64,000 nucleotides of DNA from Candidatus Terraquivivens tengchongensis (GTDB lineage: Archaea > Thermoproteota > Nitrososphaeria_A > Caldarchaeales > Wolframiiraptoraceae): the NCBI GenBank assembly GCA_023261845.1, contig JALNJZ010000004.1, positions 3,272 through 67,271 of the forward strand, in the 5' to 3' direction. A model generated the notes under the pieces. That model saw nothing but the letters and a program-made list of their open reading frames with translations. It did not search any database and had not been told where the DNA came from. Each line of letters starts with the position of its first letter. Positions within the stretch are counted from its first letter, which is position 1. Shown piece after piece: positions 60,161 through 64,000 of the stretch. Made by a program: the position numbers and the translations under genes.

Positions 60161-60265
60161 GTCAATCCCTTATTAGTATTACATCAGCGCATATTTTTGC
60201 TTTCCATCCAATGTCCCTTATATTGGACCTATAAAGGACATTAGGGGGTGTACGATGAGTTTAGG

Positions 60266-60358
60266 CGCCGGGGGCGGGATTTGAACCCGCGCGGCCATAG
60301 GCCACCGGTTTAGCAGACCGGCCCCTTCGGCAGACCTACCGGGCTAGGGCACCCCGGC
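60266..60358 (-). tRNA. tRNA-Ser (GCU), class II, with ~11 extra nt in the D-arm region (probable short non-canonical intron)
   Basis: Hand-folded. Acceptor: GCCGGGG/CCCCGGC. Anticodon arm: CCGGU-CUGCUAA-ACCGG. Long variable arm: UGGCC-UAU-GGCCGC. T arm: GCGGG-UUCAAAU-CCCGC. The discriminator is G73. The segment from position 9 to 26 is 29 nt against the ~18 expected. Confidence 0.8.
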
Positions 60359-60625
60359 TGAAAGCACGCGTAACACTCTCTTCGTCTCCTTTCTATCTTA
60401 CCATTTCATAAGCTTTTACTAAGGGTCCCGATGTGTTTCTCTGCGTTCTACGATTTTAAGAAAAAAGGAAAGTCGGCTACTTTCTAAAAGGATCTTCTAG
60501 GTTGTTTACCGAAAAGCTTATATTCTTTCGCTGGAGTTTATAAAGTACCCAGCAAAAGGGGCACCAGCGAGAGGTTGGGAGAATAAAGTGGCCTAATTCC
60601 CGGAAAAACCGGGGAATTAGGCTCG
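60359..60625 (+). promoter_or_regulatory. Putative CRISPR leader with TATA-like box and a junction hairpin
   Basis: This AT-rich 267-nt segment lies between tRNA-Ser and the first repeat. TTTATAAA at 60537-60544 is ~80 nt upstream of repeat 1. A 13-bp hairpin spans 60591-60622. Confidence 0.5.
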
Positions 60626-61536
60626 GAATCTCAAAAAGAGAATTGAAAGTTTGGATGCCTTTTGCAATACCTGGTGCAAAGAGGCCGCAACATGTGAAGG
60701 TAAGAATCTCAAAAAGAGAATTGAAAGTTTGGATGCCTTTCTCCAAAAGGCGCTATGATTGGAACGTGGATAAGGCGAAGGAATCTCAAAAAGAGAATTG
60801 AAAGTTTGGATGCCTTGTATAATTGAGTCCTCCTCTGGAATTGTGTCCGAATAGCGAATCTCAAAAAGAGAATTGAAAGTTTGGATGCCTTGTCGAGATG
60901 GCCTTCGATTATAGCATCCTCAGGATAATATCGAATCTCAAAAAGAGAATTGAAAGTTTGGATGCCTTGTCAGCGCTACTGCATCAGTTCCGGGATAGAC
61001 GAATCTCAAAAAGAGAATTGAAAGTATTTAGAGCAATAAAAGGGTGATGGTATGTTTGAATGGCGAATCTCAAAAAGAGAATTGAAAGTTGGATGTTAAT
61101 TTTCACAAATTCACCACTGCCAACTATTTCCGAATCTCAAAAAGAGAATTGAAAGTAAATCCTTTCCTAATATTCCTGTGAGCCACATAAAGCAAGAATC
61201 TCAAAAAGAGAATTGAAAGTCAATAGGAGTTATCGGTGAGTCAGATAGTTCCGCTATAATGAATCTCAAAAAGAGAATTGAAAGTGTCAATTCCCGCTGG
61301 TGTTATTCTCGTGGCTTCTATCAGAATCTCAAAAAGAGAATTGAAAGATCAATTTTATCTTTTTCACCCGAACCATCGCTTGATGCCCATAAATCTCAAA
61401 AAGAGAATTGAAAGTCTTTTTGGTCGGGCTCTCTAAATTCCTGCCACCATCACAAAGAATCTCAAAAAGAGAATTGAAAGACCTTTTGGCCCAGAGTGCT
61501 CGGGCCACCCCTGAAAAAGAATCTCAAAAAGAGAAT
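60626..61536 (+). CRISPR. CRISPR array: 13 full 24-nt repeats (GAATCTCAAAAAGAGAATTGAAAG), one truncated terminal repeat, and 13 spacers
   Basis: Repeat starts are 60626, 60704, 60781, 60856, 60933, 61001, 61065, 61132, 61196, 61261, 61324, 61391 (G1->A variant) and 61457, with a truncated repeat at 61519-61536. Spacer lengths in order are 54, 53, 51, 53, 44, 40, 43, 40, 41, 39, 43, 42 and 38. The repeat ends in ATTGAAAG, the canonical 8-nt crRNA 5' handle, and the degenerate repeat is at the right end, so transcription is inferred left to right. Confidence 0.95.
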
Positions 61537-61671
61537 ACCCCACGACAACCCTCATGGAGCAACATTTCTACTGCCATCAGACCATAGGAATATTTGAAGC
61601 AAACACCCAACGGAGTAAGACATTAATCGTGTAGTTCCTGAAGAGCTTACCAAGGTTATTCGACGAGGTGT

Positions 61672-62094
61672 TCACTCAATTTTTTCTAAGATAATTGCTG
61701 GACATATCCTAGTTATTCCGTCTATGTTTTCAAGTTTTTTTACGAATTCTGAAAGCTTACTCATATTCTTGAACCAGCACTCTATAAGTATCATGTGGTC
61801 TCCAGATGAAGTATAAAGGTTTAAGATCTCTTCCATGCTCTGTAACCTTTCCAGTACCTGGATAAGCTTTTCAGGATAGGCATCCAAACCGATGAGTGCA
61901 TGGACTTCGAATCCAAGCTTCTTTAAATCAACTTCGACGGTAAATCGTTTTATGATCTTTTCAGATTCAAGCTTTCTGATCCTCTTCCTTATAGCCGCTT
62001 CTGTTACACCAAATATCTTCGCTAATTCAACGCAAGTCTTCCTGGAATCTTTCATTAGAACCTTTATAAGGTCTAAGTCCGTAAATCGAACCAT
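61672..62094 (-). CDS. Lrp/AsnC-family transcriptional regulator
   Basis: 140 aa. It has an N-terminal HTH (DSRKTCVELAKIFGVTEAAIRKRIRKLESEKII) and a C-terminal RAM/AsnC_trans_reg domain. Confidence 0.88.
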   Translation of the reverse strand: MVRFTDLDLIKVLMKDSRKTCVELAKIFGVTEAAIRKRIRKLESEKIIKRFTVEVDLKKLGFEVHALIGLDAYPEKLIQVLERLQSMEEILNLYTSSGDHMILIECWFKNMSKLSEFVKKLENIDGITRICPAIILEKIE

Positions 62095-62918: not shown

Positions 62919-64000
62919 ATGAACTTACGAGGGACACTCGATTTATCAGCATTAGGAATATACATCCATTCGATAACCGTCGCCATAGTTATAGGATTCT
63001 CAATTACACTAACTATAATAGAGTTTTTAGGCATTAGGAAGAAGGATGCTAGCTATATAAGACTCGCCAAGCAGTTATCCCTAGTAATAGCAATCGCGTT
63101 TGTATTTGGAGCAGCGACTGGGACGCTAGTAGAATTTGGACTCGTGTAAGTATGGAATGGTGTAATCCTGGCCATCGGATCGTTCTTTTTCACTCCACTA
63201 TTTTTAGAGTTGGTAGCTTTTATAATCGAAGCAACATTGCTGGTTGCATTACTGTACACCTGGGATAAATTCAAGAATCCTTGGACCCATTGGATGATAA
63301 CGGTCACCTACACGGCGGGCGCGTTGTTCTCGGGGTTGCTGATAACTTCTGTAAATTCTTGGATGCAGGCACCATGGGGAACAGGAGAAATAGTTAAGAT
63401 AATTTATCCATGGGCTCCTGTATACGGTCCAACAGCAATAAACATCAACTTCCTGATAACCGTTAAAGAAGTATTGGTGAGCACGAGAGTAAACTTCGCA
63501 GCGTCTGGAGCATCTATAATTAACCCAACCATACTAAATACGTTATTTAGTTCTTATGGTGAGTTGCTGAAAGATCCGTGGGTATCTTTAACAAGCCCAT
63601 ATGCTTTAACGAGCATAGTACATCAACTTCTCGCCACGACAGTCGTGGGAGTTTTCTGGATAGCGGGAGCGCTTGCATACAAGGGACTGAGAAAGAAAGA
63701 GAAAAGAGATTACTATCTAAGGCTATTCAAAACGGTTGCGTTGATAGGTTCGATATTATTAATTATTCAAGGAATAGAAGGTCATGAACAAGGTCTAATG
63801 ATATACATCTATCAACCAACTAAGTTCGCTATGATATCCGGTTTAGAGAAATCTGGACCATATGTGCCAGCGGGATTAACGATCTTTGGGGATCCAAATT
63901 ACGTATTCAAAGGCTTCGATTACCTACTCCAAATGTCTGAGAATCGTCCAAACCCGAGCCTTAAAATAGGAGGTGTATCGGTTAAGGAAATAGCTCTAGC
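62919..64000 (+). pseudogene. cydA: Cytochrome bd-type quinol oxidase subunit I (CydA-like), interrupted by one in-frame TAA at 63147-63149; it continues past the window end
   Basis: The N-terminal 76 codons contain the His ligand context (IYIHSITV) and GTLVEFGLV, which aligns to E. coli MEFQFGTNW. The same frame is open from 63150 to 64000, by my codon-by-codon translation. That part encodes WNGV..., WMQAPWG, and the second His context (IVHQLLATTVVG). Confidence 0.7.

Follow-up and report, generated by a model that had tools for sequence, protein, structure and literature searches.

Displaced spacer-side integration as a likely origin of four expanded units in an orphan type I-A CRISPR array

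Introduction

To our knowledge, the way in which Cas1-Cas2 chooses the spacer-side site, and hence the constancy of repeat length, is known only from engineered repeat mutants of type I-B, I-E and II-A systems, and type I-A is essentially blank in this respect.

The choice of the spacer-side site has been described as a ruler and as a less accurate step than that on the leader side, and in engineered repeat mutants the second-site attack falls within the spacer, which is then partly duplicated (PMC6895254, PMC4872114, PMC5039180). One S. thermophilus type II-A mutant is attacked 8 nt into the spacer, with a 'partial duplication of the spacer' (PMC6895254). In the systems studied, the end of the duplication is set independently of sequence (PMC4872114), and Cas4 cleavage precedes the integration of the PAM end, which takes place on the spacer side (PMC10504553).

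Here, we analysed a CRISPR array in a 64-kb stretch of DNA, referred to below as the window. A preliminary description of this array, made from the sequence, had pointed out an identical block behind the five leader-proximal repeats and proposed that it was taken from the start of spacer 5 by slipped duplication.

Structure of the array

The array consists of 13 exact or near-exact 24-nt type I-A repeats (GAATCTCAAAAAGAGAATTGAAAG), as established by direct reading and with a script, and of a degenerate terminal copy at 61519 (Table 1). Twelve of the 13 repeats are identical, and one carries the substitution G1A. All of them match the 24-nt model of the Rfam family RF01354 (CRISPR-DR45) end to end with 36.8-37.4 bits (gathering score 37), the copy at 61391 being slightly under the gathering score at 36.8 bits. 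New spacers are added at the left, leader end, as the arrays of sister strains differ at the left and have the right-most spacer in common. Counted from the leader, the spacers are 54, 53, 51, 53, 44, 40, 43, 40, 41, 39, 43, 42 and 38 nt long.

Every one of spacers 1-5 starts with the block TTTGGATGCCTT, which occurs exactly five times in the 64 kb, each time directly behind one of repeats 1-5. With at most one mismatch, 0.47 matches are expected by chance in a sequence of this length, and no shuffle gave six. The letters behind the block (T in units 1-2, GT in units 3-5), the 44-nt length of spacer 5 and the start of spacer 7 with TTGGATG were also found, by direct reading and script, as first described. 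The near-match TTTGGATGCCTA in the neighbouring Lrp gene was considered as a further copy of the block and rejected, being at chance level. All five block-bearing copies begin at position 1 of the repeat without any duplicated leader nucleotide, and the block is identical to the prefix of spacer 5. The prefix common to adjacent units measures 13, 12, 14 and 15 nt from the newest to the oldest pair, and the sequences behind the block are unrelated among themselves. Chance or microhomology matches are inseparable from duplication, which leaves an uncertainty of 0-3 nt in the borders between block and spacer.

The excess length of spacers 1-4 was likewise borne out. They measure 51-54 nt in total and 37-41 nt after the block is trimmed; spacers 5-13 are of uniform length (38-44 nt), and spacers 1-4 conform to it only if the block is counted as part of the duplicated unit. 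In other genomes, this repeat is accompanied by 769 distinct spacers with a mean of 40.9 nt (sd 2.7), only 4 of which reach 51 nt or more, and the chance probability of four consecutive spacers of at least 51 nt is roughly 7e-10. Of the 705 distinct pairs of consecutive spacers, those from other arrays have at most 5 nt of prefix in common. Moreover, in other strains or arrays with the identical leader, the 173 spacers are 35-50 nt long, and none has the block.

Table 1. Features of the CRISPR locus and its surroundings in the window.
Feature	Position	Strand	Remarks
tRNA-Ser(GCT) bordering the leader	60264..60344	-	ARAGORN and alignment; synteny anchor, also beside the leader in L015 and sister strains
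CRISPR leader	60345..60625	+	
Lineage-specific SNP G>T in leader	60434		
Core leader	60508-60625	+	identical to the leader of the cas4-adjacent array in sister strains
TATA-like TTTATAAAGT in leader	60537-60546	+	
Strong leader hairpin	60592-60621	+	ends 4 nt before repeat 1
Type I-A-style CRISPR array	60626..61541	+	13 repeats of 24 nt, 13 spacers and degenerate terminal repeat
Putative expanded duplicated unit, copy 1	60626..60662	+	repeat + 13 nt (TTTGGATGCCTTT), maybe 12 nt + chance T
Spacer 1, putative foreign part	60663..60703	+	41 nt; normal length range once the block is removed
Putative expanded duplicated unit, copy 2	60704..60739	+	repeat + 12 nt
Spacer 2, putative foreign part	60740..60780	+	41 nt
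Putative expanded duplicated unit, copy 3	60781..60818	+	repeat + 14 nt (TTTGGATGCCTTGT); border backed by the end of homology to spacer 1 of the L107-type array
Spacer 3, putative foreign part	60819..60855	+	37 nt
ATTGAGTCCTCCTCTGG in spacer 3	60822-60838	+	also present in spacer 1 of the L107-type sister array
Putative expanded duplicated unit, copy 4	60856..60894	+	repeat + 15 nt (TTTGGATGCCTTGTC)
Spacer 4, putative foreign part	60895..60932	+	38 nt
Repeat 5 and spacer 5	60933..61000	+	spacer of 44 nt, normal length
Putative source of the block	60957-60971	+	first 15 nt of spacer 5
Eight older normal units (spacers 6-13)	61001..61518	+	spacers of 38-43 nt
Spacer 13	61481-61518	+	common to all sister strains
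Degenerate terminal repeat (GAATCTCAAAAAGAGAATaccc)	61519..61541	+	identical in sister strains
Lrp/AsnC-family regulator gene	61672..62094	-	

Comparison with sister strains and other arrays

The Lrp/AsnC-family protein served as an exact-protein anchor with which the same locus was retrieved from 23 other contigs. In the sister strains, the flanks of the tRNA-Ser...Lrp locus are 99.4-99.7% identical to those of the window, and the core leader, the repeat and the trailer spacer are the same; the core leader, of 117 nt, also follows cas4 in the cas-adjacent array. The arrays at this locus fall into at least five variants (L106, L107 type, L110, L117 and L121), which have the leader and the right-most spacer in common and differ in all leader-proximal spacers. 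All of their units are normal, with 24-nt duplications and spacers of 35-46 nt. The extended units are therefore strain-specific, a point for which the preliminary description had proposed this comparison. Repeats 1-5 and the core leader are unchanged with respect to the sister strains. Two assemblies with separate accessions (JAWBEY010000001.1 and JALNKD010000003.1) contain the identical array; they differ in contig structure, and the window is 100% identical to both.

A genuine 36-nt repeat in another array had been named as an observation that would speak against slippage. None was found, nor was the repeat end followed by the block, in any other array among 185,579 species genomes and a metagenome collection. 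The metagenome scan with ATTGAAAG+TTTGGATGCC gave 35 matches, all of them single chance matches and none in an array, and none of the 69 genome loci with this repeat has an array with this combination. A longer repeat family of 36-39 nt is not supported by these results, the long unit being confined to 5 of the 13 units.

It is close to negligible that the extended units are an assembly artefact or a hybrid, that is, mis-joined reads or units from an array with a real 36-nt repeat. The genomes are indeed metagenome-assembled, and the leader and repeat (141 nt) are duplicated in the species and cause cross-talk between contigs, e.g., in L130 and L121/L134. However, the extended units have unique sequence on both sides of the shared stretch, which at 36-39 nt is shorter than the usual final k-mers, and the two assemblies with the identical array were built into different contigs. 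An artefact cannot produce a 12-nt insertion at five places, the searches described above yielded no array of repeat plus block from which such units might come, and the 24-nt Rfam model fits each repeat copy.

Contig L130, which reads cas4-leader-repeat-TTTGGATGCCTTGTCAGC and then ends, was considered as an ancestor in which spacer 5 was the newest, and is kept as weak evidence only. Its backbone is identical to that of an L131-like strain and has 16 SNPs in 3.7 kb relative to the window lineage. As the leader and repeat are common to the two arrays, the 18-nt tip of L130 may stem from cross-talk within a mixed sample.

Search for the block in the targets

The origin of the block from the targets was assessed with an overlapping sister spacer, as no real protospacer was found for any of the 13 spacers in the searches among GenBank phages, PLSDB, IMG/VR and 185,579 species genomes. 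All 13 spacers gave matches at chance level only against GenBank phages, and spacers 1-5 gave no match to PLSDB plasmids; the exact cores of spacers 1-5 in IMG/VR gave either none or chance matches with unrelated flanks. A degenerate spacer-3 pattern and the spacer-5 core gave one match in Saccharibacteria and one in Halomonas among the species genomes, both by chance.

The first spacer of the L107-type sister array (ACATAGCTTCATAAACCGCGATG, ATTGAGTCCTCCTCTGG, G) and spacer 3 of the window (TTTGGATGCCTTGTATA, ATTGAGTCCTCCTCTGG, AATTG...) have 17 identical nucleotides. The mismatches flanking this 17-mer are 18 nt apart, in the same codon phase, and the similarity stops 3-4 nt upstream of it, where the sister spacer reads ...AAACCGCGATG and not the block. 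With this spacer as a proxy for the target, the block is shown not to be target-derived in unit 3, the sole case among the four extended spacers for which such a proxy is available. A block contiguous with the variable part in the target, which had been expected to contradict slippage, is thus absent from the target of spacer 3 by this comparison. By the same proxy, the start of spacer 3 lies 2 nt off the canonical CCG PAM.

These results leave very little room for a target-derived block, in which five protospacers would have been sampled beside the same conserved sequence of a mobile element and the spacers would be long by chance. A spacer in the unrelated array L038 does begin with TTTGGATGCC, and TTGGAT is slightly more frequent at spacer starts than expected (3 vs about 0.6). 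Such sampling leaves unexplained the excess of 11-14 nt in exactly the four newest units, as the preliminary description had already argued, and it is at odds with the spacer-3 proxy and with the unrelated sequences behind the block. The graded prefix sharing of neighbours (15, 14, 12, 13) fits serial copying instead.

Model of displaced duplication

We consider it likely that four successive acquisitions duplicated the repeat together with the prefix of spacer 5, with the spacer-side strand transfer inside the previous spacer. Units 1-4 would represent four spacers integrated one after another into a type I-A array at its leader-proximal repeat. The leader-side strand transfer would have used the normal leader/repeat junction every time, and in the spacer-side one the PAM-proximal 3' end would have attacked the bottom strand 12-15 bp into the preceding spacer and not at the junction of repeat and spacer, so that gap filling would have doubled the repeat and the first 12-15 nt of the then-first spacer (36-39 bp rather than 24). 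The first aberrant event would have copied the start of spacer 5, and the later events would have copied the block anew because it again lay directly behind the first repeat. We infer these mechanics of strand transfer from the structure of the units; the truly foreign inserts would then be about 38, 37, 41 and 41 nt, from the oldest to the newest, which is normal.

The slipped duplication of a block derived from spacer 5, as first proposed, agrees with the strain specificity of the units, with the lack of a 36-nt repeat in the arrays searched and with the spacer-3 proxy. The displacement of the spacer-side site is also supported, although not at a fixed 12 nt: it amounts to 12-15 nt, with upper bounds of 15, 14, 12 and 13. 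As in ruler or anchor mutants, the duplicated unit contains nucleotides of the previous first spacer and the leader-side border is exact. A causal mutation inside the repeat, in an anchor motif or its spacing, is not seen, as repeats 1-5 are canonical and the core leader is identical.

Loss of the cas cassette

No cas gene was found in the 64-kb window. The cognate cassette has left only csa5-cas7-cas5 as a remnant on the same contig, where an 11-kb deletion about 37 kb away removes cas3, csaX, cas6, the cas-adjacent array, cas4, cas2, cas1, csa1 and csa3. Sister strains with the same repeat and leader have the full I-A cassette csa3-csa1-cas1-cas2-cas4 ... cas6-csaX-cas3-cas5-cas7-csa5. Taken together, this makes the locus an orphan array of a I-A system and not a complete stand-alone system. 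The loss of cas genes is not specific to the window lineage: the L107-type lineage lacks the entire cassette and its array is nonetheless normal, and for this reason the idea that the deletion caused the slippage was rejected as unproven. The deletion would have come after the aberrant acquisitions and frozen the array.

The four extended crRNAs would probably be non-functional because 12-15 constant nucleotides fill the PAM-proximal seed. For the predicted crRNAs with an 8-nt handle followed by a constant 12 nt, the 8-nt 5'-handle motif is present in the repeat, and the constant block would be of 12-15 nt. Such crRNAs are probably neither made nor used today because cas6, cas3 and the whole adaptation module are deleted.

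An insertion of the four extended units after the deletion, by a foreign or second module with a ruler of about 36-39 bp that still recognised the leader, is very unlikely. In its favour, the csa1-cas1-cas2-cas4 genes of the lineage itself are missing, the 36-39 bp spacing is imprecise and resembles a pure ruler, and non-cognate Cas/CRISPR pairs can shift repeat boundaries, according to work cited in PMC4872114. However, neither the 64-kb window nor the 40 kb around the remnant locus contains a further cas1 or a second array, the present array is identical, as if frozen, in the two window-type assemblies with readable arrays, and without Cas6 and Cas3 no selection would fix four new spacers.

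Discussion

The cause of the displacement is left between two options, cis and trans, because the repeat and core leader are unchanged. We lean slightly towards persistence due to a change in the adaptation machinery of the lineage, or in its state, acting in trans, and give this explanation about an even chance. The leaning also draws on the decayed I-A cassette of the lineage, the offset of spacer 3 from the CCG PAM and the unchanged leader and repeat. The adaptation genes of the window lineage, which were sought for mutations, are deleted, and neither a mutant nor a foreign integrase was seen. The cas-adjacent array, in which the same defect would be expected under a change in trans, is deleted in this lineage as well. 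A cis effect would account just as well for the onset right after spacer 5 and for the persistence.

A cis origin, in which the first ~12 nt of spacer 5 act as a 'ruler-resetting' sequence and misdirect an otherwise normal Csa1-Cas1-Cas2-Cas4, would keep the same core of slipped duplication, and we regard it as possible but rather doubtful. The cis state would propagate itself, as each event places a new copy of the block behind the first repeat. The onset falls exactly after spacer 5, the displacement lasts for four events while the block remains, and the cuts (positions 12-15) are grouped where the retained block ends. In addition, spacer 5 is the only local difference from the sister arrays because the core leader and repeat are unchanged, and the adaptation proteins are nearly invariant on the available contigs of the species. 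However, the block shows no convincing resemblance to the repeat end, to a plausible intra-repeat anchor or to the leader junction, and has no special DNA structure; apart from the leader hairpin, folding gave a single weak stem of 5 bp within spacer 5. An array with this repeat (L038) contains a spacer that begins with TTTGGATGCCAG, 10 of the 12 nt of the block, and its later acquisitions are normal; likewise, normal units were acquired after spacer 7 of the window (TTGGATG...). The second site is also set independently of the spacer sequence in I-B, I-E and II-A systems (PMC4872114, PMC5039180, PMC6895254), and the displacement is variable, not constant.

The strongest form of a cis effect, with the first ~12 nt of spacer 5 as a self-propagating 'poison' that makes a wild-type type I-A integrase cut 12-15 bp too far at each later acquisition, seems improbable. 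If it were true, every new crRNA would be useless, with the constant block in its seed, so that one acquired sequence, possibly one favoured by selection in a virus, would disable further immunisation through that array, and a spacer sequence could override the repeat ruler.

Under slipped duplication, with the machinery as the tentatively preferred cause, the array would be a rare natural record of mis-measuring by the spacer-insertion machinery at a wild-type repeat and leader, in which the spacer-side site was shifted by more than one helical turn and stayed so for four acquisitions. The sister strains serve as matched controls, and they also supply the sequences of cognate Csa1, Cas1, Cas2 and Cas4. 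If the order of events proposed above is right, adaptation can yield a run of probably dead spacers shortly before the loss of the cas cassette. Unless the duplicated prefix is trimmed off, units of this kind will be handled wrongly by array-calling programs and in the matching of spacers to viruses.

Compared with canonical crenarchaeal-type I-A arrays (24-nt repeats ending in ATTGAAAG; CRISPR-DR45), the locus has the same repeat sequence, repeat length and 8-nt 5'-handle motif, spacers of about 41 nt in units 5-13, a repeat-proximal leader hairpin and polar addition. It differs in being an orphan and in its four newest units, in which 36-39 bp appear duplicated instead of 24 bp. Like other orphan or decaying CRISPR loci, it has kept the array and lost the cassette, and it is identical across assemblies, as expected once adaptation stops; unlike them, its last acquisitions are structurally aberrant, a feature not described for orphan arrays in the literature we found.

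Aberrant repeats arising in trans on intact array DNA are represented by E. coli K-12 proteins acting on a non-K12 array (PMC3737337, as discussed in PMC4872114). According to that discussion, the whole duplicated window moved by 2 nt there, with leader nucleotides gained and the repeat end lost, whereas here the leader side is exact, the spacer side alone moves and a foreign integrase was not identified. The closest parallels are the repeat mutants of H. hispanica I-B (PMC4872114), E. coli I-E (PMC5039180) and S. thermophilus II-A (PMC6895254), in which, as proposed for our array, only the spacer-side site has moved and the leader-side site is the normal one. Those mutants carry a designed indel or substitution within the repeat, and their shifts are mostly 1-3 bp, with 8 in one case; the shift proposed here is 12-15 bp, arose naturally at a wild-type repeat and core leader, and would have recurred over four consecutive acquisitions.

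Array structure and comparison with other spacers

The CRISPR array is built on the repeat GAATCTCAAAAAGAGAATTGAAAG, of which 12 of the 13 copies are identical and one carries G1A, and each of the 13 fits the 24-nt Rfam model CRISPR-DR45 along its full length. From left to right, the spacers measure 54, 53, 51, 53, 44, 40, 43, 40, 41, 39, 43, 42 and 38 nt. The block TTTGGATGCCTT occurs five times in the 64-kb window, each time directly behind one of repeats 1-5. The prefixes shared between adjacent units are 13, 12, 14 and 15 nt long, from newest to oldest, and without them spacers 1-4 are of ordinary size (41, 41, 37 and 38 nt). Re-reading of the repeats, spacer lengths and block positions showed that the preliminary description of the array was correct in all details. 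Neither cas genes nor a second array were found in the 64-kb window.

Features of the array and its surroundings (window coordinates)
Feature	Position	Strand	Remarks
tRNA-Ser(GCT), minus strand	left of array		
Leader	left of array		281 nt; TATA-like box and strong hairpin
Leader SNP	60434		G>T; ~190 nt upstream of repeat 1
Leader hairpin	60592-60621		z = -4.3; ends 4 nt short of repeat 1
CRISPR array	60626-61541	+	13 repeats, then a degenerate copy at 61519
Block-like sequence in Lrp/AsnC gene	61877-61888	-	TTTGGATGCCTA; 11/12 match to block; 340 nt from array end
Cytochrome bd oxidase subunit I gene	starts 62919	+	Q77* (CAA>TAA) at 63147-63149 in the window lineage

Among hot-spring genomes of Thermoproteota and Nitrososphaerota, 69 loci carry the exact repeat, and more loci were added through protein look-ups. 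The 769 distinct spacers associated with this repeat have a mean length of 40.9 nt (sd 2.7), with four reaching 51 nt or more, and among 705 distinct adjacent spacer pairs none outside the window array has a common prefix longer than 5 nt. The identical leader end is followed in other strains and arrays by 173 distinct spacers of 35-50 nt, and the block is absent from all of them. The chance of four consecutive long spacers is about 1e-9; the pattern of block and long spacers is real and far beyond chance. The block-like sequence in the Lrp/AsnC gene is compatible with chance, as 0.47 such matches are expected per window.

The same locus in sister strains

Two proteins, the Lrp/AsnC regulator and a radical-SAM protein, served as exact anchors to fetch the same chromosomal locus from many other assemblies. 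At 100% identity, JAWBEY010000001.1 (GCA_038838905.1) and JALNKD010000003.1 (GCA_023252695.1) match the window, and both carry the identical 13-spacer array. Sister strains, whose flanks are 99.4-99.7% identical to the window, keep the core leader, the repeat, the degenerate last repeat and the oldest spacer; every other spacer differs, which establishes that spacers are added at the left end. Their arrays hold 15 (locus L106), 11 (L107 type, present in six assemblies), 12 (L110), 2 (L117) and at least 3 (L121) new spacers, and all of their units are normal. The extended units are thus specific to one lineage, a point that the preliminary description had put up for checking.

The core leader (117 nt) and the repeat are identical between the window lineage and the sister strains. 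The leader differs from theirs only at the SNP listed in the table, which lies outside the core leader common to the cas-adjacent array, and one such SNP is expected at 0.4% divergence. Both arrays of the species, and also a further retrieved locus, L015, conserve the near-perfect leader hairpin of 12-13 bp (CCTAATTCCCGG-AAAAA-CCGGGGAATTAGG). The hairpin resembles the leader-proximal stem-loop that Cas1 is reported to bind in the S. islandicus I-A system (PMC9456107).

Origin of the block

The sequence ALTERNATIVES was tested as a target-derived block, a genuine longer repeat and an artefact. The first spacer of the L107-type array, ACATAGCTTCATAAACCGCGATGATTGAGTCCTCCTCTGGG, has 17 identical nt in common with the variable part of window spacer 3, and the two mismatches bordering this stretch lie 18 nt apart in a single codon phase, as expected of two variants of one coding target. 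The similarity runs 3 nt further (ATA vs ATG) and then ends, which sets the block of unit 3 at 13-14 nt; window spacer 3 reads TTTGGATGCCTTG where the L107-type spacer reads TCATAAACCGCG. Since the sister spacer has other sequence there, the block lies outside the target of spacer 3, and an origin from the target is ruled out for this spacer. The expectation that the block would not be contiguous with its target accordingly holds for spacer 3, with the overlapping L107-type spacer as a proxy. Searches for protospacers of the 13 spacers in GenBank phages, and of spacers 1-5 also in PLSDB and IMG/VR, gave no real match, nor did a search of 185,579 species genomes for those of spacers 3 and 5 (degenerate pattern or core).

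The repeat end followed by the block was found in no other array of the genome and metagenome collections, which speaks against a genuine longer repeat; the true 36-nt repeat considered earlier has no counterpart there. An assembly artefact is very unlikely because in every unit the shared stretch of 36-39 nt lies between unique sequences and two assemblies of different contig structure agree, and mis-joining cannot produce the same insertion five times.

Probable slipped duplication with variable displacement

Spacer insertion consists of two strand transfers on opposite strands, one at each border of the first repeat, and gap repair duplicates whatever sits between the two sites. As all five copies start at precisely the first position of the repeat, the transfer on the leader side was normal. 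According to the established integration chemistry, the spacer-side transfer would have attacked the bottom strand 12-15 bp into the preceding spacer. The first event would have duplicated the repeat and up to 15 nt of spacer 5, and the later ones at most 14, 12 and 13 nt of whichever copy stood behind repeat 1 at the time; serial copying with these lengths reproduces the graded prefixes. The block boundaries are uncertain by 0-3 nt, chance or microhomology matches being indistinguishable from copied bases. A constant 12-nt displacement would require coincidences of about 1 in 4096. The slipped-duplication reading of units 1-4 is therefore supported with a variable displacement: the proposed copying of the repeat together with the start of spacer 5 stands, while the fixed 12 nt gives way to 12-15 nt.

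The contig end of L130 (JAWBYP010000037.1, GCA_038867145.1; L130:8435-8477) reads cas4-leader-repeat-TTTGGATGCCTTGTCAGC, with the first 18 nt of window spacer 5 directly behind the leader, and could represent the predicted ancestor population in which spacer 5 was the newest. Because the backbone belongs to another strain, not to the window lineage, and the 141 nt of leader plus repeat are common to both arrays of the species, the tip may be assembly cross-talk in a mixed sample. Separately, the spacer TCTTTATCAGTGCCTTCGCC... sits behind the tRNA-Ser-side leader in one of L121 (JAVZCU010000006.1) and L134 (JAHLWW010000199.1) and behind the cas4-side leader in the other, so the arrays are either confused by assemblers or exchanging units.

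Persistence of the proposed slip

A one-off slip would leave exactly two block-bearing units; five require four consecutive slips, so that the slipping state was inherited or all four events took place in one abnormal episode. With the core leader and repeat identical and the SNP far upstream, the sequence of spacer 5 is the sole remaining candidate in cis, yet it is rather unlikely to cause the shifted spacer-side site itself: the block resembles neither the repeat end nor a plausible anchor, it shows no notable structure, and window spacer 7 (TTGGATG...) is followed by a normal unit. Likewise, five normal units stand leader-ward of a spacer starting TTTGGATGCCAG behind the same repeat in L038, an SKW303 Nitrososphaeria MAG. 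This normal 39-nt spacer (L038:378-416, +; start TTTGGATGCC) belongs to an unrelated array and matches 10 of the 12 block nt in identical register, with an a priori chance of about 6e-4; TTGGAT is mildly in excess at spacer starts.

A cause in the adaptation machinery or its state has about an even chance of being correct, and the rest of the probability falls to other causes. The cut sites, 36-39 bp from the leader junction and close to spacer length, look like the product of a ruler that takes no cue from sequence. The PAM indicated by overlapping spacer pairs for the species' I-A system is CCN/TCN, and spacer 3 starts 2 nt downstream of the position set by a canonical CCG PAM, judged from the sister spacer; this single spacer, read by proxy, hints that PAM-end handling may also have been off in the slipped events. 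Overlapping or near-identical spacers were seen between L110 (spacer 12) and L107 (spacer 8), and among L110 (spacer 2), L107 (spacer 2) and L128 (spacer 10). Their offset starts or SNPs point to independent sampling of the same mobile elements by the sister strains.

Loss of the cas cassette

The type I-A cassette of the species was reached through the cas4 gene beside the identical leader in L110. Its order is csa3-csa1-cas1-cas2-cas4-[same leader + array]-cas6-csaX-cas3-cas5-cas7-csa5, and in the sister genome JAVZQK010000001.1 it lies ~40 kb from the tRNA-Ser array. At the equivalent position, the contig of the window itself (JAWBEY010000001.1, ~156-178 kb) keeps only csa5-cas7-cas5 and the first ~200 nt of cas3, the latter fused to a truncated VIT1 gene. 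The deletion of 11,040 bp, with 10-bp microhomology (L143:11880-12075; L152:10560-10800; JAWBEY010000001.1 ~166 kb), removed most of cas3, csaX, cas6, the cas-adjacent array, cas4, cas2, cas1, csa1 and csa3, as well as a flavin reductase gene and the C-terminal 170 codons of VIT1. At least four assemblies share this junction, and 10-11 contigs carry the protein specific to it. The side adjacent to csa5 is variable: it holds a type III-B (Cmr) locus, housekeeping genes or, in the window lineage, an IS240-family transposase with Csx1 and MarR.

The cassette is intact in some strains (e.g., that with the L106 array) and partially deleted in the window lineage, and in others nothing of it is left between the flavin reductase and NRD1-like genes; these three states, read from L142-L151 and L156-L165, show that Cas loss is recurrent in the species. 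Contigs that lack the cassette completely carry the normal L107-type array, and cas loss alone does not explain the slippage. The adaptation proteins are nearly invariant on all available contigs of the species, and the window-lineage copies are deleted. Because no integrase remains, the simplest order would place the aberrant acquisitions first and the cassette deletion afterwards, which fits an array that is identical wherever it is read. A second sign that genes are decaying in the window lineage is the nonsense codon in the cytochrome bd oxidase subunit I gene, which is intact in sister strains (496 aa).

Consequences and relation to known systems

In the crRNAs of units 1-4, a constant stretch of 12-15 nt would separate the real guide from the 8-nt handle. 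As this stretch would fill the PAM-proximal seed, general knowledge of type I seeds predicts that type I-A interference by such crRNAs should fail. The array itself is probably silent today, as cas6 and cas3 are deleted. The case is of clear interest for CRISPR adaptation and directly testable with the sister-strain proteins.

It is the PAM end, once cleaved by Cas4, that performs the spacer-side step, which is inherently less accurate than its leader-side counterpart (PMC10504553). In types I-B, I-E and II-A, a ruler with its anchor within the repeat fixes the spacer-side position, whatever the spacer sequence, and engineered repeat mutants move the site; one of them shifts it by 8 nt into the spacer, giving 'partial duplication of the spacer' (PMC4872114, PMC5039180, PMC6895254). 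As an instance of aberrant repeat duplication, the window array is a natural variant of something already known and not a new system; unlike in the engineered mutants, the displacement is natural, larger and repeated, and the repeat is wild-type.
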